Translations under genes and position numbers: made by a program
Notes under the pieces: model-generated
Seen by the model: the letters and a program-made list of their open reading frames with translations, nothing else
Database searches by the model: none
Told to the model about the DNA's origin: nothing
Shown here: in pieces, positions 1 to 40,504 of the stretch
Numbering within the stretch: the first letter of the stretch is position 1
Layout of the letters: every line of letters starts with the position of its first letter
Assembly (NCBI GenBank): GCA_964571695.1
Contig: CAZNDG010000012.1
Location: forward strand, 2,296 to 66,295
Length of the DNA: 64,000 nucleotides
Direction of reading: 5' to 3'
Origin: an uncultured Syntrophus sp.
GTDB taxonomy: Bacteria > Desulfobacterota > Syntrophia > Syntrophales > UBA8958

Positions 1-192
1 CTGATCCGTCTCCTGCCGGGGCGACGCGCCCGGGGCCTGTCCGGGTTTGCGCCGTTCCAGATCCGCCTGGATGTCCGCCGCCGTCAGCTCCAAACGCGGC
101 GGGCAGCCGTCTATGACGACACCGATGGCGGGGCCGTGGGACTCTCCCCAGGTGGTGACCCGAAAAAGGACGCCGGTAGTGTTACCTGACAT
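1..192 (-). CDS. aroC: chorismate synthase, N-terminal 64 codons (gene runs off the window start)
   Basis: Minus-strand translation from ATG at 192 reads [51 protein letters not shown]. This matches the conserved AroC N-terminus (FRVTTFGESHG motif). It overlaps the aroK stop by 11 nt. Confidence 0.85.
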
Positions 193-742
193 CGCTATTC
201 ATCTCCTTTGATTTGATTTTCTTCATTTTTGCCACTAAACCCATGATCTCCGCGGCGACCTCCGCGACGGTCAACCGGCTGGTGTCCACCACTCCGTCGG
301 CGACCCGGCGGTAGGCCGGTTCCCGTTCCCGGAGGAGCGATTTGATTTCCGCGCCCGCATCGCCGCCGGACAGGGGCGGTCGCTGGTCTCCGCTCTCCGG
401 GGCCTGCCCCAGGCGCTTCCTGATCGTGGCCACATCGGCGGTCAGCCAAAAAAACACCCCCCGGATCTTCAGATCCGCCACGTTGCGGCGATCGAGAACG
501 GCGCCGCCGCCCAGGGAGATGACCAGACCGTCCCGGTGGGCGATTTCCCGGATGCAGGCCCGCTCCGCGCTGCGAAAGGCGGGCCACCCGCCGTCGGCGA
601 CGAGCGCGCGGATCGATTTCCCCGTCCGCTCCTGGACCAGGGCGTCCGTGTCGAGAAACGGCCGCCGCATCTTTTCCGCCACCACCCGGCCCGCGGAGGT
701 CTTGCCGCAGGCCCGGTAGCCGATCAACACTATGTTCATCAT
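182..742 (-). CDS. aroK: shikimate kinase
   Basis: The ORF has the Walker A motif GYRACGKTS and a shikimate-kinase-like body ([16 protein letters not shown]). The start is ambiguous: TTG at 751, ATG at 742 or ATG at 739. Confidence 0.9.
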
Positions 743-751
743 ATTTTGCAA

Positions 752-2038
752 TTAGACCTGCCTTTGATCATATAATTTATCCAGCTCCCGCCAGAAGCCC
801 GGAAAGGACTTGTCCACGCAGCGGGGATTCCGGATCTTCACCCCCGGGACGACCAGACCCAACACGGCGAAACTCATGGCGATCCGGTGGTCGTTGTAGG
901 TTTCGATTTCTGAGCCGTGGGGATTGCCGCCGTCGATGACGAGGCCGTCCGGTTTCTCTTCCACCGGGACGCCCATCTTCCTCAGCTCCTCCGCCAGAGC
1001 CGCCAGCCGGTCGCTCTCCTTAATCCGGAGCTGGGCCACATTGGCGATCACCGTTCGCCCCGGCCGCACCGCGGCCAGGACTGCCAGGGTGGGGACCATG
1101 TCGGGCATGTCCTGGAGATCGAAGCGCCGCATCCCGGCCCGGAGCGGCCCGCCGGCAACCGCCGCTCCGTTTCCCCTGAGGGAGATGTCGCAGCCCAGTT
1201 CCTCCAGGAGCTTCAGGAAGCCGATGTCGCCCTGCCGGGTCCGGAGGGGGACGTTCTCGACCGCCACGCTGCCCCCGGTGAGGGCCGCGGCCAGGAAGAA
1301 GTAAGCGGCGCTGGAGGCGTCGCCCTCGATCCGGCAGTCCGTCCCCCGGTAGCTCTGGCCGCCCCGGATAATGTAACGGTCGGGAGTTTCCGTCCGGACC
1401 TCCACGCCGAATTCCCTCATGGCCTCGACGGTGACGGCGATGTAGGGCCGGGAGGGGATCAGTCCGGCCAAGTCTATCCGCATATCCCCCGCCGCGTAGG
1501 GGGCGGCGATGAGGAGGGCGGAGACGTACTGGCTGCTGTCGAGGTCCCGCAGGGTAACACTGCCGCCCGGCAATCCCGAAGTGCGAATCGAAACGGGGGG
1601 ATAGCCTTCGCGGCTAAGTCCCCGGGCCGTGATGCCGAGGCTGTTCAGGGCCGCCAGCAGCGGGGCGAGGGGTCGTTCCTGAAGCCGTTCGTCGCCGGTG
1701 AGGAGGAACTCCCCCCGGCCGATGGCGGTCACCCCGGTGAGGATCCGCATGGCTGTACCGTTGTTACCCAGGTAGATCTCCCGGCCCGGATTTTCCAGGC
1801 GGCCGCCGGTGCCGCCCACGACGAGGTCGTCCTGCCGGGGGGTGATGACGGCCCCCAGGGCCCGGAGGGCGGCGGTGAGGTGCGTGGTGTCCTCCGCCAC
1901 GAGGGGGCGACGCAGCAGAGACTCCCCCCGGGCGAGGGCGGCAAGGATCAACGCCCGCTGGGTGTAGCTCTTGGAACCGGGCACGGCCACGGCGGCGTTC
2001 AGTGGATGGAACAGCGGTCTGATGTCAACGGTTTCCAT
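752..2038 (-). CDS. aroA: 3-phosphoshikimate 1-carboxyvinyltransferase (EPSP synthase)
   Basis: The protein carries VPGSKSYTQRALILAALA and full-length EPSPS similarity. The start METVDIRPL at 2038 is preferred over the upstream ATG at 2077. Confidence 0.95.
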   Translation of the reverse strand: METVDIRPLFHPLNAAVAVPGSKSYTQRALILAALARGESLLRRPLVAEDTTHLTAALRALGAVITPRQDDLVVGGTGGRLENPGREIYLGNNGTAMRILTGVTAIGRGEFLLTGDERLQERPLAPLLAALNSLGITARGLSREGYPPVSIRTSGLPGGSVTLRDLDSSQYVSALLIAAPYAAGDMRIDLAGLIPSRPYIAVTVEAMREFGVEVRTETPDRYIIRGGQSYRGTDCRIEGDASSAAYFFLAAALTGGSVAVENVPLRTRQGDIGFLKLLEELGCDISLRGNGAAVAGGPLRAGMRRFDLQDMPDMVPTLAVLAAVRPGRTVIANVAQLRIKESDRLAALAEELRKMGVPVEEKPDGLVIDGGNPHGSEIETYNDHRIAMSFAVLGLVVPGVKIRNPRCVDKSFPGFWRELDKLYDQRQV

Positions 2039-2075
2039 AATATCATTCTCGATGGATCGGTATAAAGTCTCACCC

Positions 2076-2183
2076 AACCCTCCCCTTCAAGGGGAGGGTT
2101 GGGGTGGGGATGGGTTTAATCCCCTCCTGCCATTACCGGTAATAACCCCATCTCCCTCCTTGCCTCCCCCTTGCAGGGGTAGG
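2076..2183. repeat. pair of inverted REP-like units in the aroE-aroA spacer
   Basis: The unit at 2076-2116 has a perfect 10-bp stem (AACCCTCCCC/GGGGAGGGTT, loop TTCAA) followed by GGGGTGGGGATGGGTT. A related unit lies in inverse orientation at 2147-2183. A third copy is at 3273-3309. Confidence 0.6.
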
Positions 2184-2249
2184 AACAAACCACGAAGGGG
2201 ATGGGGAAAACACTTTTTGCGAAGTCATTGCAAAGGCAGCGCCGCCAGG

Positions 2250-3047
2250 TCATAACTCCGGCAGCGCCGCCAGGACAACCCGTTGCATGACCGCCGCCGG
2301 CGCCTCCCGGCCGGTCCAGATCCGGATCTGCTCCGCCCCCTGGCGGACGAAGAGGCCGATGCCGCTTATGGGGGTGCAACCGGCCGCCTCGGCTTCCCGG
2401 AGCAGCTTCGTCTTGCGGGGATTATAAACAGCGTCCATGACGAAGCGGAAATTGGGCAACGACTCCGGGGCCACCGGTGATTGTTCCGTATACGGATGCA
2501 TGCCCACGGGGGTTGTATTGATCAGCACATCGGCCCGGAAGTCCGCTACGGCGGCCAGGGGTCGGACCGGACAATGAAAGTCCCGGACCAGCGCCGCTCC
2601 CCGTTCGGGGGTCCGGTTGAAGATCACCGGCATGCCCCCTTGGCGGAGGATGCCGAAAATCGCCGCCCTGGCCATGCCGCCCGCCCCGAGGACGGCAAAG
2701 GTGTTTCCCCGGATCGGGACGTGCTCTTGCAGTTCCCGGACAAGACCGAGCCAGTCCGTGTTGTCCCCGACAAAACAATCCGCCTGCCTGACAACGGTAT
2801 TGACGGCACCGATCATCCGGGCGTTCGCCGTGACTTCATCAAGATGGGCGGCGATCCCCTCCTTGTGGGGAATGGTGACGCTGGCGCCGTCCAGACTAAG
2901 GGATCTCATCCGGGGGATGATTTCCCCCGCGTCAGCCAACCGGTATGCCTTGTAGGAGGCCTTAAGTCCCATGGAAGCATAGGCGGCCCGGTGCATAGCC
3001 GGGGAAAGGCTGTGCCCTATGGGGTCGCCGAAGAGGGCAAAGCGCAT
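2250..3047 (-). CDS. aroE: shikimate 5-dehydrogenase
   Basis: MRFALFGDPIGHSLSPAMHRAAY is a typical AroE N-terminus, and an NAD(P) glycine-rich site VLGAGGMARA is present. The start at 3047 was chosen inside the longer ORF 2250..3155. Confidence 0.9.
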   Translation of the reverse strand: MRFALFGDPIGHSLSPAMHRAAYASMGLKASYKAYRLADAGEIIPRMRSLSLDGASVTIPHKEGIAAHLDEVTANARMIGAVNTVVRQADCFVGDNTDWLGLVRELQEHVPIRGNTFAVLGAGGMARAAIFGILRQGGMPVIFNRTPERGAALVRDFHCPVRPLAAVADFRADVLINTTPVGMHPYTEQSPVAPESLPNFRFVMDAVYNPRKTKLLREAEAAGCTPISGIGLFVRQGAEQIRIWTGREAPAAVMQRVVLAALPEL

Positions 3048-3272
3048 ACCGCATCCTTCTAACGATTCCCGCTCGGGCCTGTTATCGCCATTGCTGTGCA
3101 AGCCGGCAGCCGAGTTTTTAGTATGAAAATACATCCGTTGGTCTCCCTTAAACATTTTTCATCGTTCGTGGGTGTTGGATAAAATTAAATTCTTTCGCGG
3201 ATGTGTTCCCATATATTCGATTTCATTCATGTCCGGCTTCATTAATTCCTGGATTTGGTCACCAATAATTTT

Positions 3273-3309
3273 CCTCTCCTTTAAGGGAAGGCTCAAGGTG
3301 GGGATGGGT
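3273..3309. repeat. third copy of the REP-like unit (aroD-aroE spacer)
   Basis: CCTCTCCTTTAAGGGAAGGCTCAAGGTGGGGATGGGT shares the hairpin plus GGTGGGGATGGGT tail with the units at 2076-2183. Confidence 0.55.
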
Positions 3310-3365
3310 ATTCCATTATATGAACATTAGGCTTCGCTTTCGTCCCTATTCACGACGGGATGCCG

Positions 3366-4079
3366 TTATGGGTGTTGCATGTTCTTCCCCGGAGGAATCA
3401 ATAAAGCCAGCGCCTTTTGCATCTCTTTGCAGGTGAACTGCCCCGGCGCCGTTTCCCGGCCCCTGGCAGCCGTGGCGTAGGTAAGGTGGGCGCCGAGCAG
3501 CAGCGACATGACCCGGCTGATCTTTCCCTGTTCGCCCATGGCGAAGGCGATGATCTCCTGCCCCCGCTGCTTGGAATAGGGGATCAAGGACAAGATACGG
3601 AGATTGTCCTCCGGAAGCCGGGCCAGGGTAACCACCTTGACGATGTCGCCCCCCTTTTCCCGACAGGCGCGCCAATGCCGCCGCAGGGAACCCACTCCCG
3701 GCGTGCCCCGCCAGTCGTGGCAGGAGATGATGATCCGGGGGCGCGGGCCGCTTTTTCCCGCCGCCGCTGCCGCGGTGAACAGTCTTTCCGCCAGCCGGTC
3801 ATCGGTCGCCGCTTCCAGGTCGAGATAATCGGCGCCGTTGACCGCGGCCCGGCAGAGTAAGTCGAGCCGCTGTTCCTCCGTACCGGCGAAGCTGCCTCCT
3901 TCCTTCCGGCGGCGGTTGGTAACGATAACGGGCCGGGTTTTCGCCCGGAGCAGCACCGCCAGATCGAGGTCGGCGATCAGGTCGAGACGCAGCTCGATGA
4001 GCGTGGCGGTGGGAGGGCAGGCGGCCATTTTTTTCAGGACCTCCGCCATGCTGTCCCCGCCCAGGGAGAGGCAGATCAC
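3366..4079 (-). CDS. aroD: 3-dehydroquinate dehydratase, type I
   Basis: The C-terminal 237 codons of the long ORF 3366..4814 read VICLSLGGDS...IELRLDL...VIVTNRR...IISCHDW...KVVT, which are type I DHQase features. The GTG start overlaps the pheA stop (GTGA). Confidence 0.8.
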   Translation of the reverse strand: MICLSLGGDSMAEVLKKMAACPPTATLIELRLDLIADLDLAVLLRAKTRPVIVTNRRRKEGGSFAGTEEQRLDLLCRAAVNGADYLDLEAATDDRLAERLFTAAAAAGKSGPRPRIIISCHDWRGTPGVGSLRRHWRACREKGGDIVKVVTLARLPEDNLRILSLIPYSKQRGQEIIAFAMGEQGKISRVMSLLLGAHLTYATAARGRETAPGQFTCKEMQKALALLIPPGKNMQHP

Positions 4080-5155
4080 TGTCCCTCCTCTCCCCGGGCG
4101 TAGGAACCGAGGACCTTGATGAAAGTCGTGGTGTTTGCCATCTCCTGAAGGCATCCGGCCACCGGTTCGTCTTCCCGGTGCCCGGCCAGATCGGCGAAGA
4201 AGAAATATTCCCACTTCCGGTCCCGGAGGGGGTGGGACTCGATGCGCAGGAGGTTGATCCTTTCCCGGGCAATGGGAGCCAGGGCCTGGTGCAGGGCCCC
4301 CGGAACATGGGGAGTTCCGAAGAGGATGGATGTCTTGTCCCTGCCGGTCAGCTCCCCTTCCCCGCGGCCGAGGACGAGGAAGCGGGTGGTGTTGCCCGGA
4401 TTGTCCTCTATGTCCGCCGCCAGGATCGCCAGGCCGTTGATCTCCCCGGTGAGCCGGCTTCCCACCGCCGCCCCGGCGGGATCGACCAGGGCCTGTCTGC
4501 CCGCGGCGGATGTGCTGGCCGTCTCGCACTGCTCGACCCGGGGAAGGTTCTCGGCGAGCCAGCGCCGGCACTGGGCCAGGGCCTGGGGGTGGGAGTAAAC
4601 ACGTTCGATTTCCTCCCGCCGGGCATGGTTTGTGAGGAGGCACAGGGAAACCGGCAGGAAGATTTCCGCCCTGATTGATAGGGGAGTCGCGATGAGTCGG
4701 CGCAGGGTATGGCCCACGGAGCCCTCGGTGGAGTTTTCCACGGGGACGATGCCCAGGAAGTTCCGATCCCGTTCCGCCCGGTCGAAGACATGGTCGATGG
4801 TGGCGGCGGGCCACAGTTCCGCGCCGTGGCCGAAATGGGCCCGGGCGGCCAGGTGGCTGAAGGAGCCTTTCGGACCGAGATAGGCGACGGTCAGCGGCGC
4901 CTGGAGCGCCCGGGAGGAGGAAAAAATCTCCCGGAAGATCTCCGCGACTGCCTGGTCTGGCAATGGCCCCGCATTGTGCCGTTTCAGGAAGGCCAGGATC
5001 CGGGCCTCCTGGTCGGGACGGTAAACGTCGGCGTCGGCTTCTTTCTTGACCTTGCCGATGGCGACGGACCGCGACGCCCGTTCGTTCAAAAGGCGCAGCA
5101 ATTCCGTGTCGATGTCCCGCACCTCCCGACGAAGTGTTTCCAGTGATTTTTTCAT
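4076..5155 (-). CDS. pheA: bifunctional chorismate mutase / prephenate dehydratase (P-protein)
   Basis: There is an N-terminal CM helix region (LRREVRDIDTELLRLLNERA), a PDT domain (VAYLGPKGSFSH) and a C-terminal ACT-like region (TSILFGTPHVPGALHQAL). Confidence 0.9.
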   Translation of the reverse strand: MKKSLETLRREVRDIDTELLRLLNERASRSVAIGKVKKEADADVYRPDQEARILAFLKRHNAGPLPDQAVAEIFREIFSSSRALQAPLTVAYLGPKGSFSHLAARAHFGHGAELWPAATIDHVFDRAERDRNFLGIVPVENSTEGSVGHTLRRLIATPLSIRAEIFLPVSLCLLTNHARREEIERVYSHPQALAQCRRWLAENLPRVEQCETASTSAAGRQALVDPAGAAVGSRLTGEINGLAILAADIEDNPGNTTRFLVLGRGEGELTGRDKTSILFGTPHVPGALHQALAPIARERINLLRIESHPLRDRKWEYFFFADLAGHREDEPVAGCLQEMANTTTFIKVLGSYARGEEGQ

Positions 5156-5171
5156 CTTTCCTCTTCCGGCG

Positions 5172-6308
5172 TCACTTGCCGCCTGTCTTAACCCGGCGCT
5201 GTACCTTCCGTTCCGGTGCCGCCGCCGGTAGGATCTCCCTGATCCTCTCGACCGGGATTCCCCCGTTGACGAATGGCATCCCCGGCCTCTTCAGGAGGAC
5301 GAAATGGATCATGCCGCCTGTCTTCTTCTTGTCATGTTCCATCCGGGCCATGATGGCCTCACGGTCCAGGGCGGCGGGCAGCCGGACAGGCAGCCCCAGC
5401 TTCTGGAGGAGCGCGACGATCCGCTCGCCGTCAGCTTCGGGGAGGTGGCCGAGGCGCTGGGAAAGGGCCAGTGCCCCCGCCATGCCGATCGAAACCGCCT
5501 CGCCGTGGGGAAGGGCGTAGGCGGACGCCGCTTCGACGGCGTGACCGAGGGTGTGGCCGAAATTGAGGATACGCCGCAGCCCATGCTCCTTTTCGTCTAT
5601 CTCGACGATCTTCTTCTTGATTTCTCCCGCCCTCGTCACTATGGGCAGGAGGGTGTCCAGGTCGTCGCCCCGCCGCAGGATTGCCGCCCGGTCCTCCAGG
5701 ATTTCCAACAGACCGGGATCGTCGATGACGGCGCATTTGACGATCTCCGCCAGACCGTTGCCCATTTCCCGCGCCGGCAGGGTCCGGAGGAATTCCAGGT
5801 CCGCGAAGACCGCCTTGGGCTGGTGAAAGGTCCCCAGGATGTTCTTGGCGGCAGGGAGATCAACGCCGGTCTTGCCGCCGATGCTGCTGTCCACCTGGGC
5901 CAGGAGGGTGGTGGGGAATTGGAGGCAGGGGATCCCCCGCATGTAGATGGAGGCGACGAACCCCGTCAAATCGCCCACCACGCCGCCGCCCAGGGCGATA
6001 AGTCCCGTGGCGCGGTCCGCCCCCCGGCGGAGTAGTTCCTCGGCAACGGCGACGGCGGTAGCCATGGTCTTGGCCTCCTCGCCGGCGGGAATGGTGATGG
6101 ACTCCAGCGACAACCCCGCCTTCCGCAGGGTTTCCGCCACCCGCTCTCCGTGGAGGGCGGCGACTTTGGCGTCGGTGATGAGGAAATACCGCTGCGCCCA
6201 GTTTCCCTTGGCGATGAGCAGGGCCGCCCGATCCAGGATATCCCGGCCGATGAAAACTTCATGGGACCGGGATGTCTTCTTCTCGAGACTGATCTTGAAG
6301 CGGTTCAT
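5172..6308 (-). CDS. aroB: 3-dehydroquinate synthase
   Basis: Translation from [10 protein letters not shown] shows LIALGGGVVGDLTGFVAS, GGKTGVD and HGEAVSIGM, which are DHQS motifs. The ATG overlaps the aroF stop (ATGA at 6305-6308). Confidence 0.9.
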   Translation of the reverse strand: MNRFKISLEKKTSRSHEVFIGRDILDRAALLIAKGNWAQRYFLITDAKVAALHGERVAETLRKAGLSLESITIPAGEEAKTMATAVAVAEELLRRGADRATGLIALGGGVVGDLTGFVASIYMRGIPCLQFPTTLLAQVDSSIGGKTGVDLPAAKNILGTFHQPKAVFADLEFLRTLPAREMGNGLAEIVKCAVIDDPGLLEILEDRAAILRRGDDLDTLLPIVTRAGEIKKKIVEIDEKEHGLRRILNFGHTLGHAVEAASAYALPHGEAVSIGMAGALALSQRLGHLPEADGERIVALLQKLGLPVRLPAALDREAIMARMEHDKKKTGGMIHFVLLKRPGMPFVNGGIPVERIREILPAAAPERKVQRRVKTGGK

Positions 6309-7333
6309 TGGCGCACCTCGATCCGGTTCTTCATGACCTCTGAAAGGATCCGCATCTCTTCCATAAGCTCGTAGAACTTTTCCGGTTTCAGGGACTGTGC
6401 CCCGTCGGAAATGGCCTTGGCGGGTTCGGGATGGACCTCGATGATCAGGCCGTCCGCCCCGGCTACGATGGCCGTCCGGGCCAGGGGCTTGACGTATTGC
6501 CAGTGACCGGCGGCGTGACTGGGATCGACGATGACGGGGAGATGGGTAAGCTCCTTGAGGACCGGCACGGCGCTGATGTCCAGGGTGTTGCGGGTGGCCG
6601 TCTCGAAGGTGCGGATCCCCCGTTCGCAGAGGATGACGTTGTCGTTGCCCGCGGCAAGGATGTATTCTGCCGCCATGAGGAGTTCCTCGATGGTGCACAT
6701 CATTCCCCGCTTCAGGAGGACGGGTTTTCTCGCCTGTCCCACCTTCTTCAGGAGGGCGAAGTTCTGGACGTTTCGCGCCCCGATCTGGAGGATGTCGGCA
6801 TACTGTTCCACCAGATCCACGTCGGTGGTGTTCATCACTTCCGTCACGACGGGGAGACCCGTCTTCTCCCGGGCCTTCTTGAGGATCTTGAGGCCCTCCT
6901 CTTCCATGCCCTGGAAGCTGTACGGCGACGTGCGGGGTTTGTAGGCCCCGCCCCGGAGTACCTGGGCGCCCCCTTTCCGGGCGATGTAGGCGCTTTCGAG
7001 AAGCTGCGCCTCACTTTCGATGGAGCAGGGTCCGGCCATAACAACGAAATCCGGACCGCCGATCTCCAGATCGCCCACCCGGACGATCGTGTCGCCGTCC
7101 CGGGACTCGCGGCTGGCCAGCTTGTAGGGCTTGAGGATGGGCATGACCTTTTCCACCCCCGGCAGGTGCTCCGTGGCCTTCAGTTGCGCCTTGCCCCGGT
7201 CGTCGCCCACGATGCCGATGATCGTCCTCTCCACCCCCTGGGAGGGGTGGGCCTGGTAGCCCACCGACTCGATCCAACCGATGACGTGGTCCACCTGCTT
7301 TTCCGTGGCGTTTTTCTTCATGATTATAACCAT
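6305..7333 (-). CDS. aroF: 3-deoxy-7-phosphoheptulonate (DAHP) synthase, type I-beta with N-terminal regulatory domain
   Basis: The protein is collinear with Thermotoga-type DAHPS ([38 protein letters not shown]). A GGAGG lies 8 nt upstream of the ATG at 7333. Confidence 0.9.
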
Positions 7334-7351
7334 TTTTTAGACCTCCAAAAG

Positions 7352-7389
7352 GAAAGGCCATGGGAACCGCCGCCGCCCCATGGCCTTTC
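7352..7389 (-). promoter_or_regulatory. 13-bp stem-loop just upstream of the aroF ribosome-binding site
   Basis: The minus strand reads GAAAGGCCATGGG-GCGGCGGCGGTT-CCCATGGCCTTTC followed by CTTTTGGAGG. Its arms are also complementary to the arms of the upstream terminator hairpin. Confidence 0.55.
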
Positions 7390-7390
7390 A

Positions 7391-7432
7391 GAAACAAAAA
7401 AGCCACGGGGGAACTGCCGCTCCGCCCATGGC
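7391..7432 (-). terminator. intrinsic-terminator-like hairpin in the aro leader (candidate attenuator)
   Basis: The minus strand reads GCCATGGG...CCCGTGGC (8-bp stem with one G.U pair) followed by TTTTTTGTTTCT. It lies between the leader ORF and aroF. Confidence 0.6.
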
Positions 7433-7455
7433 TCATTTTTTATTTTCTCGGGGGG

Positions 7456-7542
7456 TTACCCCTCCCTGAGCGACAGGCGGACCGGCGCGCCGTAAAAATA
7501 ATACCAGTAATAAAAGCTGGAAAGCGCGCTGTGGTTACCCAT
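7456..7542 (-). CDS. candidate aro-operon leader peptide (28 aa, FYYWYYFY)
   Basis: The minus-strand ORF reads MGNHSALSSFYYWYYFYGAPVRLSLREG*. It has eight consecutive aromatic codons in AT-rich codons within a GC-rich genome. An AAGGAG lies upstream at a rather long 16-nt spacing, and hairpins plus a U-tract lie downstream. Confidence 0.6.
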   Translation of the reverse strand: MGNHSALSSFYYWYYFYGAPVRLSLREG

Positions 7543-7584
7543 CGTGTCGGTTGATAGACTCCTTGCCTAAATTCGTGGCATGAG

Positions 7585-7613
7585 AATTACTCACAGTTTT
7601 TTCCCCATGTCAA
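7585..7613 (-). promoter_or_regulatory. possible sigma-70 promoter of the aro operon
   Basis: The minus strand has TTGACA (7613-7608) followed 15-18 nt later by AGTAAT/GTAATT/TAATTC. The -10 assignment is ambiguous. Confidence 0.3.
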
Positions 7614-7859
7614 CAAAAAAATCGTCAGACAAGGAAAAACCCGGCGCTATTGATAGCCATGCCCATAACGGGCATAACAAAAAATTATAAAATCCATTTG
7701 GTTGAGGGCTTTTCCATATAAATTTTCATATATGCCATGTCCGTCCGCCGTGGGTGGTTCCCGATATTGGGAGTTTTGCAGAACCGCGGGAAAATGGTTC
7801 GCAAGCGGCGAATCAAATGTTTTTCTCCGTTTTTCGTGATTGAACTTAACGCCTGGTTA

Positions 7860-7937
7860 TGAATAAGATTTATACGTTACCCATTTCAGAAGTGAATAAG
7901 ATTTCTGAGCCGCGGCGAAGCCATTTTTCAAAGTCTC
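7860..7937. repeat. ~75-bp interspersed repeat, copy A (inverted relative to copies B and C)
   Basis: TGAATAAGATTTATACGTTACCCAT..GATTTCTGAGCCGCGGCGAAGCCATTTTTCAAAG aligns at roughly 85-90% identity (by eye) with the reverse complements of 58065-58131 and 60896-60973. Confidence 0.75.
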
Positions 7938-7951
7938 GATATTATGGACGG

Positions 7952-9538
7952 TCACGCCGGAACCGCTCTCCCCTCTCCATATACCAGCATGCGATAGGTC
8001 TTCTCGATGCGGTCCCAGTTTTCCTCCCGGTCCATGGACCAGAAACGGCCGATGACGGAAACTATCTGTCCCAAACCCAGGGAGGCGCATTTTTTTTCCA
8101 CTTCCTGGATATAGCGGGCGCCGCTTTCCGGCTGCTCCCCGCGGCGGCCCAGCATGGCGTGGATGTAAACCTCCGGCACGGATTGCCGTCGTGCCATCTC
8201 CAGGAGGGCGAAGAGATGGGGGAGGGAGCCGTGGGAGCTGAAGAAGGAGACGATGCCCATGAGGTGCAGGGCGGTTTTCCTTTCTTTGGCGGCATTCATG
8301 ACCTTCAGGAAGGCCTTGTTCCGGAAGAAGGCGCCGTCGGCGATGGCCCGGTCGATGCGGACCCGGTCGGAATAGATCCGTCGGCCGGCGCCGATGTGGA
8401 GATGTCCGGCCTCGGAGTTGCCCACGGTGCCCGGGGGCAGGCCCACGGCTTCACCGGCGGCCGCCAGGACGGCAAAGGGGTGGTCGGACAGCAGCCGGTC
8501 CATGACGGGCGTCCGGGCGGAAGCGAGGAGGTTGCCGTAGGCGTCTTCCCGGTAGCCCCAACCGTCGAGGAGGAGATATAGGACCCGAGTTCTGACTTTT
8601 TCATCTCCATTGCCAGGATTCCTTTCGATCAGGGATCGGCCCGTCATCAGCGGGGAGGAGGAGAGCCCCAGGAGATCCAGGACCGTCGGCGCCGCGTCGG
8701 CAAGCTCCCCCTGCTTTCGAATAGTTATCCCTCCTTCCGGGGAGATGAGGACTAAGGGGACGGGACTGTCCGTGTGCCCGGTGTCCACGGCGCCGTCGGG
8801 GTAAAGCCATTTCTCCACCGTGCCGTGGTCGGCGGAGACGACGACCGTCATCCCCGCTTCGGCGGCGGCGGCGATGGCGGCGCCCGCCTGGCGGTCCACT
8901 GCTTCGATGGCCTGGATGATGGCCTCCCGGTTTTCAATGTGTCCCACCACATCCACATTGGGAAAGTTGGCAAAGATAAAGGAATAGCGCTGGTCCCGGA
9001 TCGCGTCCGCGACCGCCGCCCCGATCTTTCCGATGGACATCTCCGGGGCGGCATCGAAAAGGGCGACGTCCTTGCGGGTCGGCACCACGATCCGGTCTTC
9101 ACCGGGGAAGGGCTCCTGCCGCTTGCCGTTGAGGAAATAGCTCACATGGACCGCCTTTTCCGCCTCGGTGATCTTCACCTGCCTCAGACCGGCCCGGGCG
9201 ATCAGGGCGCTCAGGGTATCCTCCAGGGTTTCTTCGGGGGGAAAGGCCACCTCCACGGGAAGGTCCCGCCGGTACTCGATCATGGTGGCGTAGGCCAGCC
9301 CCAGGTCCGGCGTGGTGGGAAATTCGGCGAAACCCTTTTCTGTGAGGCTTCTGGTCAGTTCTATTTCCCGTTCTCCCCGGATGTTGTAAAAGATTACGGC
9401 GTCGCCCTTGCCGATCCTGCCGAACGGCGCGCCGTTCCTTCCTCTGGCGACCAATGGCTGCAGTGTCTCGTCTTCCTCGCCGGCCCGGTATGACTTGCGG
9501 ACCGCCTCGGACAGCGAATAATTCCCGGTTGGCTCCAT
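7952..9538 (-). CDS. gpmI: 2,3-bisphosphoglycerate-independent phosphoglycerate mutase, circularly permuted domain order
   Basis: All iPGM motifs are present (LDGWGY, GNSEAGH, FYNIRGER, GLRQVKITEAEK, PEMS, NVDVVGH, SADHG, MTGRSLI). The segment normally at residues ~232-511 comes first and the segment ~5-231 comes last. A GGAG lies 9 nt before the ATG at 9538. Confidence 0.85.
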   Translation of the reverse strand: MEPTGNYSLSEAVRKSYRAGEEDETLQPLVARGRNGAPFGRIGKGDAVIFYNIRGEREIELTRSLTEKGFAEFPTTPDLGLAYATMIEYRRDLPVEVAFPPEETLEDTLSALIARAGLRQVKITEAEKAVHVSYFLNGKRQEPFPGEDRIVVPTRKDVALFDAAPEMSIGKIGAAVADAIRDQRYSFIFANFPNVDVVGHIENREAIIQAIEAVDRQAGAAIAAAAEAGMTVVVSADHGTVEKWLYPDGAVDTGHTDSPVPLVLISPEGGITIRKQGELADAAPTVLDLLGLSSSPLMTGRSLIERNPGNGDEKVRTRVLYLLLDGWGYREDAYGNLLASARTPVMDRLLSDHPFAVLAAAGEAVGLPPGTVGNSEAGHLHIGAGRRIYSDRVRIDRAIADGAFFRNKAFLKVMNAAKERKTALHLMGIVSFFSSHGSLPHLFALLEMARRQSVPEVYIHAMLGRRGEQPESGARYIQEVEKKCASLGLGQIVSVIGRFWSMDREENWDRIEKTYRMLVYGEGRAVPA

Positions 9539-36012: not shown

Positions 36013-37993
36013 GTCGGGTAAAGGACTGGCGCGGTTCCTGGGCATATTCCCGGCCCGTTTCCAGCCCCTCCCCATAGGAACTGCTCGTGAGGTTTTCCCT
36101 CAAGCAGCTCGCCCAGCAGTCTTCTCCGAAAGGGTTATGAGTCCTGGTGATGTCAGCGGCCACTTTCACGAATAGGCCTCCACGTTTTGCAGGGGGTGGA
36201 TTTTCCAATCCCAAAACAGCCCCAACACGCCATAGAGATACTCGTTACTCCACCGCCGCCAACCCACGCTTCGTTTCTGCCTGCGCTTTCGCCGTGTCAG
36301 CAGTGTCCTGACCTTCATTTCCAGATAGTCCCGGACTTCGCTGAATGCCCGACTTGAATTGCCAACCCGGAAGTACTCAACCCATCCGGCCAAGCTGGCA
36401 TTGATCCTCTTGATCAAGTCTTCAGCAGGGGTGGCTCCCCCGAGTTGAATGATCTCTCGAATCTTTGCCTTGATGGCCTTGCGGGCTTTCTTCTTCGGTG
36501 TCAGCAAAATGTAGTGCCGGGTCTTTTCACGGTTCAATATACGCCGGAAATCAAACCCGAGGAATCCAAAGGTACCACCATCAAGCATGTTCACCACCTT
36601 CGTCTTCTCCATGTTCAGCTTCACACCTAACGGCTCTATCTGTTCACAGAGGCGTTGCAGGGCTCTTTCCGCCCAGCCTCGCTTGGTATGGTGCCCGCTT
36701 ACGGTTATCACAATATCATCAGCAAACCGATGATAGTTCACAGCCTCGTATTCCCCCTTCTGCTGTCTTGCGCCGTATCCCATCAAAGTACCAGTCCACG
36801 TCGTTCAGGTAGATATTGGCCGCCAATGGGCTCAATGGCCCTCCTTGCGGAACGCCTATTTTCCCTGTTGTCTTCAATATCACCTTCACGAGGTGCAGCA
36901 CTTGGGGGTCTTGGACCCGTCGCGCTATTTTCTCCAACAGGATGTCGTGCCTGATCGTGTCGAAGTATTTGGATAGATCGACGTCAATCACCAAGATCAT
37001 CCGTCGGAGGATACTTCTTCGGACTTCCGCAAGGGCGCGGTGCGGCGATCGCTTCGGTCGAAAACCGTATGAGTTCGGACAGAAATCCGCCTCGAAGATA
37101 GCTTCGAGAACCCACTTCAGCGCCCCTTGCACCACGCGATCACGGATACTCGGAATCTGAAGGGTGCGGGTCTTGCCGTCCCCTTTTGGTATTTCTACAA
37201 AACGATTCGCTTGTGGTTGGTAATTTCCTGCCATAAGGTCATCTCGAATGGACTGGAGGAATGTCTCCACTCCCATTGCATCGACGTCTTCGAAGCTCTG
37301 TCCGTCGATACCCGGGGCGCCGCCATTCCTCTTTGCCAAACGGTATGCCTCCGCAAGTACTTCGATCTTCGTCACATGCACGAAGATCCCCCAAAAACGA
37401 TCTCTTTCTCAGGCTTCGCCTTTCGGTAAATCCGTCGGCGCAACTCCTTCAAACTGATGGGTGCCTTTGTCATTTCACCCTTGCCTCGTTTTGCCAAAAC
37501 GGAATATCTGCCGGTCCGGGTCCATCCCTCCCCGTGCGTTTTACTGCGCACAGATCATAAGTACTACGACCCGATCCGCCACCCTGACGCCATTCCCGCC
37601 ACTTCCCACTCAAGGTTATAGGCCGGAACTCCTCATCGAGGTTTCTTCGACGGGTGTCGAGGGCTTCTCCAGTTTCCGCATAATCCTTCGTACCATGTCG
37701 CCGCTGATACCCCGCCGGTGAGAGATAGCGTACATGACTCATCACCGCCATCTCTTGCTGCCTTCGCGCGTTATCGACCGTCTCGGCCACCGGAATGCGT
37801 GTAACGAGGCTACATCTGCGTTTACTGTACGTTACAACCTGGTACGTTGCGCATCCTCCTTTCAAATAATGTTGTCGAAGGGCTTTACCGTCTTGCTTTC
37901 GCGCCACGGCACCTTCCAAGCTACAAGGCCCTGAGTCTTTTAGCCTCGGTCGGACTTTCACCGACTGGATTATGCGTCCTTGTCTGGACACAC
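36013..37993 (-). mobile_element. bacterial group II intron (1981 nt) inserted in the sense strand of the IS4 transposase
   Basis: The 5' end is GTGTG (GUGYG consensus). Domain V is GAGCTGCTTGAGGGAAAACCTCACGAGCAGTTC. A domain VI-like helix has an unpaired A 7 nt from the 3' end, and the 3' end is ...CCCGAC (AY). Removing the intron restores CRWQVEIFFGWWK. Confidence 0.85.
36166..37473 (-). pseudogene. group II intron-encoded reverse transcriptase/maturase with two frameshifts, no endonuclease domain seen
   Basis: MTKAPISLKELRRRIYRKAKPEKE is in frame 1. RFWGIFVHVTKIEVLAEAYRLAKRNGGAPGIDG...GVPQGGPLSPLAANIYLN is in frame 2. QKGEYEAVNYHRFADDIVI...GWVEYFRVGNS is in frame 3. Confidence 0.8.
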
Positions 37994-39295
37994 CCACCTG
38001 CCAGCGGCAGCGATAGAGATCGGCAATCGTTAGAGCGGGCAGGGTAAAATTGTTGGTCAGGAACACAAGAGTTTTCTTGTTCTTTGAATATAAGTACCGA
38101 ATGCGGCGGAGTTTTTACGGATAATCCTTTTTGGCGTAGTAGCCCTTGAGGATAACAATCTGATCGCATTGGACCCCGGTGGATTTGTCGACGGGTATGG
38201 AGTAGAGGCGTTTTCGGCTGAAGTTTTTCTTTGCCCTGGTGACAAAAAATGCCGAGGTTTGATGGATTTTGTGGAGGCGTGCAAAATCGAGATAGCCGCG
38301 ATCCATAACGTAGATGGCGCCGGTTTCGATGATCAGGTTGTCGAGGATATTGACGTCGTGAACCTTTCCTGTTGTGATGATGATCACAGAAGGAATGTTT
38401 CCGTGCAGATCCAGGAGGGTATGGAGTTTTACGGCACCTTTCCGTTTTCGAAATTCCGCACATGGGAAAAGGGCCAGACAGAGATCGATGGTAGTCGGGT
38501 CCAAGGCGTAAACTGCTTGATCCAGTTCGACCCCAAAGGAATCTTCGACATAAAGTTTTCTGGCCCTGGCAATGAGTATTTGAGCGAAATCGGCATAAAT
38601 TCGCCAATCTCTGGTCTGATTGGCATGGGCAAGGGTATTGCGAGACACCTTCCCCCGGATGCCCAAATGATAAAGCCGGGACGGGGTTACCCGCAGGCAG
38701 GCCTGAATATCTCTCAGGCTTTCCCAGTAGGTGAGCTGAGCAAACGCCATGCAAAGATATTGGTCCCAGCAGGAAAAGCTGATCACTTTGTGATTGCCGT
38801 TGTATCGATCGACGCATTTTCGGAACTCGTATGCGGGGACAAAGTCCATTAACTGGGCAAAGATCGTTTTCCCGGAATTCATTCGCCATCTCCTTTTTCA
38901 GTGATGGCGGAGATTGGCATATCCGAGAAAAATTTTTCAAATCGATAAATGAGATTTTACGCTATAAACGAAGAGATTTTATGATGTTACGGTGTCATCA
39001 AAAATCAACGTTGGGACACCAGTGATAACATGCAAGACAAATCTCCACTTAAAATCCTCTGGCGAAAAAAAAGGGCATGGAATTGCTAAGGCTTACAGAA
39101 AGCCTTCCGGCCCTTGCGGGTGACGGATTCCGTGACCAATTTTGATTTTTTGGCATAAAACAAGACATCTGTCGGGCGTCCTTCCGTATTCGAGTTTTAG
39201 CGCCATCAGAATACCAGCTTTGTTTTAATGTAAAGAAAATTTTGCAACTAAAAACAGGTTTGCAATCTGGCGCCACTTGTGCCATAAAGATTTAA

Positions 39296-40428: not shown

Positions 40429-40504
40429 TGGTGGAGATGAGGGGGCTCGAACCCCTGACCTCGGCATTGCGAACGCCGCGCTCTCCCAGTTGAGCTACAT
40501 CCCC
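40429..40504 (-). tRNA. tRNA-Ala (anticodon CGC), CCA encoded
   Basis: The minus strand reads GGGGATGTAGCTCAACTGGGAGAGCGCGGCGTTCGCAATGCCGAGGTCAGGGGTTCGAGCCCCCTCATCTCCACCA. It folds as a cloverleaf with a G3:U70 identity pair and anticodon loop TTCGCAA. Confidence 0.93.

Follow-up and report, generated by a model that had tools for sequence, protein, structure and literature searches.

A predicted leader-peptide attenuator with tandem terminators upstream of the shikimate operon of an uncultured Syntrophus sp.

In a stretch of 64,000 nucleotides (nt) of an uncultured Syntrophus sp. (assembly GCA_964571695.1, contig CAZNDG010000012.1, positions 2,296 to 66,295; hereafter the window), the operon aroF-aroB-pheA-aroD-aroE-aroA-aroK is preceded by a short open reading frame (ORF) with eight consecutive codons for phenylalanine, tyrosine or tryptophan, and by two hairpins that lie between this ORF and aroF. 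This arrangement raises the question of whether translation of the short ORF could control transcription of the operon and, if so, how one leader peptide might govern two terminators placed one after the other. Judging from the sequence and its relatives, the region is very probably a leader-peptide (ribosome-mediated) transcription attenuator of the operon; the way in which the two hairpins may be linked to each other is proposed here with more reserve.

The predicted leader peptide and its conservation

All leader features lie on the minus strand, and coordinates are positions in the window. The leader ORF extends from an ATG at 7542 to a TAA at 7458-7456, comprises 28 codons plus the stop and reads MGNHSALSSFYYWYYFYGAPVRLSLREG. 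The putative regulatory codons, UUU UAU UAC UGG UAU UAU UUU UAC (F Y Y W Y Y F Y), follow each other without interruption at 7515-7492. The original prediction had described such a mini-ORF between a TTGACA box and aroF, and in the sequence it is indeed present and unique to this position, since the runner-up in any of the six frames of the window is a run of five aromatic codons. With a six-frame aromatic codon frequency of 0.069, about 7e-5 runs of at least eight are expected in the window, and the leader ORF with its aromatic run is far beyond chance. As judged from Pfam matches, the downstream operon comprises the shikimate pathway and pheA, i.e. it makes the amino acids that its leader codons specify.

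In order to place the leader among its relatives, loci were collected by way of aroF. Close relatives of the AroF protein number in the thousands; those that bear a name belong to Syntrophobacterales, Thermodesulfobacteriota or "Deltaproteobacteria" metagenome-assembled genomes (MAGs), and the best genome matches of AroF are from Syntrophaceae, Smithella and Syntrophobacterales MAGs, at 72-77% identity. A metagenome scan returned 80 loci with an aroF 71-96% identical to that of the window, 76 of them with enough upstream DNA, and a mini-ORF in which a stretch of eight residues includes five or more aromatic ones was found at the equivalent position in 75 of these 76 relatives. The detailed set of 76 leaders, composed of the mini-ORF relatives and the window itself, has a mean of 7.9 aromatic residues per leader, with Phe, Tyr and Trp all present in 74. 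Codons vary between loci while aromatic identity and reading frame are kept, which is the signature expected of regulatory codons. Upstream of aroF orthologues, both the aromatic mini-ORF and the terminators are therefore conserved, and the presence of the ORF in almost every relative, together with the covarying hairpins and the conserved spacing described below, lends support to the earlier proposal that an aromatic leader and a terminator attenuate the shikimate operon.

Likewise, a similar aromatic leader with a terminator is found before aroF or aroH-aroF in about 20 of 80 genome loci, including Geobacterales, a Desulfobacterales MAG, Methylomirabilis, several Acidobacteriota, Chloroflexota, a Clostridia MAG and a Desulfurellales MAG. 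This spread across phyla is wider than had been expected. Only one terminator follows the leader in Acidobacteriota, Chloroflexota, Clostridia and Desulfurellales. The aromatic ORF is kept in lineages with other stem sequences, namely CCGG cores in Geobacterales and GCCCACUCG in Acidobacteriota. In three Chloroflexota loci (L015, L021 and L023) the distance from the leader with its single terminator to the downstream aroF is 465-612 nt, and in L021 the leader precedes a type I chorismate mutase gene (1587-1973; PF07736, 6e-40) located directly before aroF.

Three further traits of the ORF deserve mention. Its Shine-Dalgarno (SD)-like sequence, AAGGAG, is found at 7564-7559, and the spacing to the ATG seen in the window is common to the closest relatives (L081, L082 and L084), other relatives such as L002, L003 and L004 having an SD about 6-10 nt from the leader ATG. 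U-ending codons account for five of the seven Phe and Tyr codons in the window leader, and TTC and TAC together for 59 of 80 in the aro genes at 182-7333; the related leaders hold TAT 227 times vs TAC 76 times, and TTT 170 times vs TTC 37 times. Such a bias may provide a higher sensitivity to tRNA charging, or may keep the run unstructured. In addition, a purine-rich, SD-like AGGAGG stands a few nt 5' of the leader stop (7459-7468 in the window) in most relatives, for example L002, L099, L129 and L132, and it is retained as nucleotides despite a differing frame, the peptide reading ...PAEEDLLR in L129 and ...PSRTED in L132. This motif may be a pairing partner for something, or may hold the terminating ribosome.

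Predicted terminators, antiterminator and start-site segment

Between the leader ORF and aroF two hairpins are predicted, each with a free energy of -26.2 kcal/mol. Terminator 1 (T1; 7392-7434) consists of a hairpin at 7434-7400 and the U-run UUUUUUGUUU, and terminator 2 (T2; 7347-7389) of a hairpin at 7389-7352 and the U-rich tail UUUCCUUUU. The fold of the 271-nt leader is more stable than that of shuffled sequences (z = -4.7). Pairing and covariation were counted on an alignment of 75 leaders, in which cells are aligned base-pair positions per sequence as counted. T1 and T2 are found in nearly all of these leaders, with 93.5% of cells paired: 90.6% in T1, with 6 pairs showing compensatory changes, and 96.7% in T2, with 7 such pairs, giving 13 in total. 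The two stems contain 110 double-change cells vs 32.8 +/- 4.8 in shuffled alignments, none of 500 shuffles reaching 110, and pairing falls to 24-50% when the register of T1 and T2 is slid. An RNAalifold consensus independently gave the same two hairpins. At least 7 U are found within the 9 nt after the T1 stem in 67 of 74 loci, and at least 6 U after T2 in 71 of 74. A consensus terminator scan flagged neither T1 nor T2, a result that we attribute to bulges in the stems and regard as uninformative. On this comparative evidence, T1 and T2 are real RNA hairpins and predicted intrinsic terminators of transcription between the leader ORF and aroF.

The stems of T1 and T2 have the palindrome GCCAUGGC in common, which occurs in its full form in the relatives and is represented in the window arms by the core CCAUGG. 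We considered whether the GCCATGG hairpins could belong to a dispersed repeat of the repetitive extragenic palindrome type, and rejected it: the motif GCCATGGS has 21 scattered matches in the window vs about 10 expected, with no other paired copies. Ten relatives (L095, L098, L104, L109, L116, L120, L121, L122, L145 and L160) carry an extra 100-200 nt between T2 and aroF. These inserts have apparent hairpins of their own, subsets of them are similar in sequence, and they match no Rfam family; they may constitute a further regulatory element that has no counterpart in the window.

The best-conserved stretch of the leader is CGGUCUGCCCAUCGCU, directly after the aromatic run, rather than the run itself. 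It is complementary at 15 of 16 positions to AGCCAUGGGUAGACCG, which comprises the 5' arm of T1 and half of its loop. Numbering the pairing segments from 5' to 3', CGGUCUGCCCAUCGCU is the consensus of segment 2 (7486-7467), the putative antiterminator 5' strand in the 3' part of the leader ORF, where the peptide reads VCPSLRR, and its partner is segment 3 (7435-7416), formed by the T1 5' arm and loop. The antiterminator helix 2:3 thus joins 7486-7467 to 7435-7416, with a core of UCCGCCUGU and AUGGGCGGA and additional flanking pairs, and this register is both the minimum-energy and the conserved one. In the 75 aligned sequences 86.4% of its cells are paired, and when segment 2 is free, 58 of 75 loci adopt the antiterminator as their minimum-energy fold. 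Taken jointly with the putative relay helix described below, pairing amounts to 86.5% vs 31-44% with the register slid.

In order to mimic a stalled ribosome, only the RNA 3' of a ribosome placed at each aromatic codon was folded; folds in which pairing across the bound ribosome was allowed gave implausible 1:2 helices around it and were replaced by this procedure. In such folds of the window the antiterminator (-47.3 kcal/mol) and T1 (-47.1 kcal/mol) are iso-energetic, and the antiterminator would be expected to form before T1 because its strands are transcribed first. When the ribosome is placed at the stop codon only T1 and T2 fold. The spacing agrees with such a switch, as segment 2 begins 5-8 nt after the last aromatic codon and, in 65 of 74 loci, its end is separated from the stop codon by 10-16 nt. 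With a standard ribosome footprint, segment 2 would stay accessible during a stall at every aromatic codon except the last, and a ribosome at the stop would mask the 3' end of segment 2, which pairs with the base of T1.

A further segment would complete the set of alternatives. Segment 1 (CGAUGGGU, 7544-7537) spans the leader ATG and pairs with 7478-7471 (GCCUGUCG) within segment 2, and this pairing is present in the unconstrained minimum-energy fold of the window. In 45 of 64 relatives, the part of the 5' leader that best complements segment 2 starts between -5 and +1 nt relative to an in-frame ATG. The segment 1 motif, AUGGRCAGA, mimics the 5' arm of T1, and in six loci it is located 15-26 nt upstream of the ATG, where it is non-coding, and therefore looks like an element acting at the RNA level. 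From its sequence, segment 1 can provide the classical logic of alternative 1:2, 2:3 and 3:4 helices.

These folds also bear on the structural part of the original prediction. Alternative terminator and antiterminator structures do exist, in a register other than the one then put forward. The four arms of the two hairpins, described as mutually complementary, can pair with each other, mainly owing to the palindromic core CCAUGG in each of them (GCCAUGGC in relatives), and the alternative 2:3 fold proposed between the two hairpins is a possible pairing that we would rather interpret as step two in a series of linked helices, as inferred below. The leader segment CUGUCGCUC can pair in the window with GAGCGGCAG in the T1 loop, as suggested; that helix is absent from the minimum-energy folds, and in the alignment the T1 loops of the relatives differ at that place. 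Finally, a hairpin across the UAA stop codon (7447-7468; -11 to -14 kcal/mol in the window), previously included in the attenuator, proved to be lineage-specific, with a median z of -0.27 over 76 loci, and was discarded as a conserved part of the mechanism.

A possible relay between the terminators and competing explanations

Because the two stems have GCCAUGGC in common, pairing is possible between the T1 3' arm and the T2 5' arm. The proposed relay helix 4:5 (7376-7410) would join the T1 3' arm and U-run (7410-7397) to the T2 5' arm (7389-7376) through 14 bp, with -22.5 kcal/mol. With segment 2 free and the RNA extended up to the T2 5' arm, the antiterminator together with 4:5 is the minimum-energy fold of the window (-61.3 kcal/mol), and under these conditions the 4:5 helix is part of the minimum-energy fold in 50 of 75 loci. 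According to findpath, replacing 4:5 by T2 while the antiterminator stays in place would mean crossing a barrier of 13.9 kcal/mol.

The leader ORF, its conservation and aromatic content, the covarying T1 and T2, the register-specific complementarity of 2:3 and 4:5, and the spacing are observed directly. On these grounds we hypothesize a mechanism in which the ORF is translated, ribosomes stall, the helices fold in a kinetic order, T1 relays its state to T2 and the outcome responds to amino acids. A transcript would start from the TTGACA-box promoter, and a ribosome would begin the 28-codon leader. A shortage of tRNA charged with Phe, Tyr or Trp would make the ribosome stall within 7515-7492, leaving segment 2 (7486-7467) exposed to pair with segment 3 (7435-7416) as it emerges, so that T1 would be blocked. 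The freed T1 3' arm (7410-7397) could then pair with the T2 5' arm (7389-7376), T2 would be hindered and the polymerase would enter aroF. When aromatic amino acids are plentiful the ribosome would reach the UAA and cover the 3' part of segment 2, the complement of the T1 base, upon which T1 and T2 would fold and transcription would terminate. If the leader is not translated, the start-codon segment 7544-7537 would pair with segment 2, and the terminators would form as well. In its full form, this proposal sees a single leader peptide controlling two tandem terminators through six segments that fall like dominoes, the off state being marked by helices 1:2, 3:4 and 5:6 and the on state by 2:3 and 4:5, with the leader start site as segment 1. 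The arrangement would be conserved in Syntrophales-like bacteria, Desulfobacterales and Geobacterales, T1 would serve in some of them, having lost its U-run, as an anti-antiterminator for T2, and, together with the single-terminator versions, the leaders would make up a widespread uncatalogued class. We put this complete scheme forward tentatively, with slightly more doubt than conviction.

Several observations weigh against the attenuation mechanism. Covariation in the antiterminator and relay helices is weak, with 29 double-change cells vs 15.9 +/- 3.5 in shuffled alignments, and the number of 2:3 and 4:5 pairs with double changes is not above that of the shuffles; for 2:3 this is explained by the conservation of both strands, its support coming mostly from conserved complementarity. 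A ribosome positioned at the stop codon would mask segment 2 only in part, over about 2-8 nt with the standard footprint, and 1:2 pairing is not significant in the window alone (z = -0.5). The SD of the window is 16 nt from the leader ATG. The candidate -35 box TTGACA (7613-7608) has an equivalent, TTGACA or TTGAC, at the same relative position in 66 of the 76 loci listed; a consensus promoter scan of the leader region gave no promoter, there being no good -10 box in the window leader, and the candidates TAATTC or GTAATT around 7590-7584 are uncertain. As to the relay, folding of the complete RNA yields T2 as the thermodynamically preferred structure in 67 of 75 loci, even with the antiterminator persisting, and consequently the relay could only be kinetic; the 4:5 helix displays little covariation of its own in the alignment; and the palindrome common to T1 and T2 could reflect duplication instead of function.

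The latter points are also those that would be expected if attenuation took place at T1 alone, with T2 as an unregulated, leaky back-up terminator lowering basal expression, or as an mRNA-stabilizing 5' hairpin, and with stems alike by duplication. The presence of GCCAUGGC in all arms would make their complementarity automatic, and the single terminator of Acidobacteriota, Chloroflexota, Clostridia and Desulfurellales leaders fits this explanation equally well. Nevertheless, a strong terminator that escapes regulation, placed 20 nt before aroF, would keep the operon shut during starvation as well. Furthermore, the T1 U-run is lost in L107, L118, L129 and, by reading of the sequence, in Geomonas L005, all of which have retained their leader and T1 hairpin as well as a full T2 followed by a good U-run, and such a loss is only sensible if T1 governs T2. 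Across seven lineages with differing stems, cognate 4:5 duplexes reach -122.5 kcal/mol vs -103.3 +/- 6.4 kcal/mol for permuted ones, only 0.14% of permutations being as strong, in a comparison for which the segments were picked by hand, a circumstance that also tells against the relay. The energy of the window 4:5 helix and its barrier to T2 likewise speak against control at T1 alone. On balance, we regard this simpler explanation as a real possibility that we are inclined to disbelieve, and the chances that a relay from T1 to T2 operates as roughly even.

Two other explanations dispense with the ribosome. A trans-acting factor, either an RNA-binding protein of the TRAP or PyrR kind or a small RNA, might read the six CAUGG/CCAUG-like segments, the aromatic ORF being incidental or otherwise used; one short motif does recur in segments 1, 3 and 5, its complement in segments 2, 4 and 6, and the SD of the ORF is badly spaced in the window. 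We consider this very unlikely, given that aromatic identity is kept despite codon change, that 75 loci preserve both the frame and its distances to segment 2 and the stop, and that lineages with CCGG cores or GCCCACUCG still have the aromatic ORF; no candidate regulator turned up nearby, although no search was aimed at one. That a chance ORF happens to stand beside ordinary terminators or a structured spacer, with no regulatory role, would agree with the failure of simple consensus scans to flag promoter or terminators, and is nonetheless scarcely credible: the comparative data already contradict it, with the ORF retained in the relatives and in several phyla and with hairpins that covary, and both the rarity expected of an eight-codon aromatic run and the lack of a dispersed GCCATGGS repeat in the window point in the same direction.

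Genomic setting and relation to known attenuators

The leader is followed by aroF (6305-7346, minus strand, including its SD GGAGG at 7346-7342; ATG at 7333), which encodes a type I-beta 3-deoxy-D-arabino-heptulosonic acid 7-phosphate (DAHP) synthase with an N-terminal ferredoxin-like FXD domain, matching PF00793 at 8e-82 and PF18152 at 9e-25. The remaining genes of the operon, aroB, pheA, aroD, aroE, aroA and aroK, occupy 182-6304 on the same strand, as assigned from Pfam matches and ORF layout, and pheA combines chorismate mutase, prephenate dehydratase and ACT domains (CM-PDT-ACT). Upstream of the leader, the minus-strand ORF at 7952-9538 matches domains of phosphoglycerate mutase (iPGM), the best-matching parts being in an odd order, with Metalloenzyme at residues 99-293 and iPGM_N at residues 395-524, and could be a permuted or mis-delimited gene. 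Further away, a group II intron D1-D4 RNA match (101 bits) is found on the minus strand at 37827-37967, with neighbouring minus-strand ORFs at 36719-38940, and the region probably represents a mobile intron of this type. Another run of aromatic codons, FWYFY (37184-37198, plus strand), is 0.6 kb from this match, inside a longer plus-strand frame and overlapping the minus-strand ORF 36719-37381; it lacks a leader-like context and was treated as chance. A tRNA gene lies on the minus strand at 40432-40504 (Rfam tRNA, 63 bits).

The predicted element has no counterpart in Rfam. Neither the whole window nor 13 related loci had a leader, T-box or riboswitch family at gathering score, the only matches in this regard being to miRNA and sRNA families at chance level, and at 6800-8400 no leader (Trp_leader, Phe_leader, His_leader, Thr_leader or Leu_leader) or T-box match was obtained even at E <= 10. 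Likewise, no description of an aromatic leader in delta-proteobacteria, Geobacter or Syntrophus was found in the searchable literature, subscription papers being outside its scope.

In the enterobacterial trpL and pheL leaders, a run of end-product codons, helices 1:2, 2:3 and 3:4 and a terminator precede the first structural gene, and a stalled ribosome leads to the antiterminator whereas a ribosome at the stop leads to the terminator (PMC11802643). The window leader has in common with them a short ORF with end-product codons, alternative 1:2, 2:3 and 3:4 helices and an intrinsic terminator before the first gene, all as predicted. It differs in that it mixes Phe, Tyr and Trp codons and would govern the common shikimate pathway, not a terminal branch; in that segment 1 overlaps the start codon instead of the regulatory codons, with the antiterminator strand wholly inside the ORF; and in having two tandem terminators and no Rfam leader-family match in sequence or structure. 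Closer in its target gene is the aroR leader of Corynebacterium glutamicum (Phe-Tyr-Phe), located upstream of aroF, in which attenuation is relieved by Phe limitation and for which no effect of Tyr supply is reported (Mentz 2013, PMC4046766; Neshat 2014, as cited in PMC11802643). Both are mixed-aromatic leader peptides before a DAHP synthase operon, whereas the aroR leader is actinobacterial, has three aromatic codons and no Trp, and its DAHP synthase may be of a different class. Homology between the two is unlikely and, as likened from the published descriptions, they are probably analogous. The uORFC-13-1 motif of Acholeplasma, a predicted upstream ORF with Phe codons next to an intrinsic terminator, is found exclusively upstream of aroF (PMC8632094). 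Compared by description alone, it differs from the window leader in being limited to Acholeplasma and environmental sequences, and in that only a U-run coding for one Phe or more is described for it (PMC8632094). A mixed Phe/Tyr/Trp leader upstream of this operon had been put forward as an unusual form of layered control. The FXD regulatory domain of the DAHP synthase does make layered control plausible; as for its being unusual, aroR (PMC4046766, PMC11802643) and uORFC-13-1 (PMC8632094) are precedents.

Two other kinds of system offer partial likenesses. T-box and TRAP control in Bacillota also rely on conditional termination upstream of aromatic amino acid genes, but the leader described here has no T-box match, no (G/U)AG repeats were noticed in it, and it has a conserved, translated-looking ORF instead. 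In the his attenuator of Salmonella and E. coli, segments A-F form A:B, C:D and E:F or, alternatively, B:C and D:E, and thereby relay the position of the ribosome to a distant terminator. A chain of alternately complementary segments is seen in both; the his leader has a terminator in its final helix alone, whereas here both 3:4 and 5:6 are terminator-like with U-runs, and the few relatives without the 3:4 U-run resemble the his layout.

Leader-peptide control of aroF is already known, and the present form of it is conserved and so far uncatalogued. As a conserved RNA element absent from Rfam, it could join annotation pipelines. At the level of physiology, carriers are predicted to sense all three aromatic amino acids through one peptide, atop allosteric control of DAHP synthase. 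The paired terminators offer a testable relay of a single ribosome-sensing event, which bears on the tightness and cooperativity of attenuators and on the design of synthetic regulators. Leader-peptide attenuation, mostly studied in enterics and actinobacteria, would be extended to the entry into the shikimate pathway in anaerobic syntrophs, metal reducers and poorly studied phyla. If the domino-like scheme holds true, mixed Phe/Tyr/Trp attenuation of DAHP synthase would be a widespread uncatalogued class outside the Proteobacteria and Actinobacteria, in which attenuation has mostly been studied.

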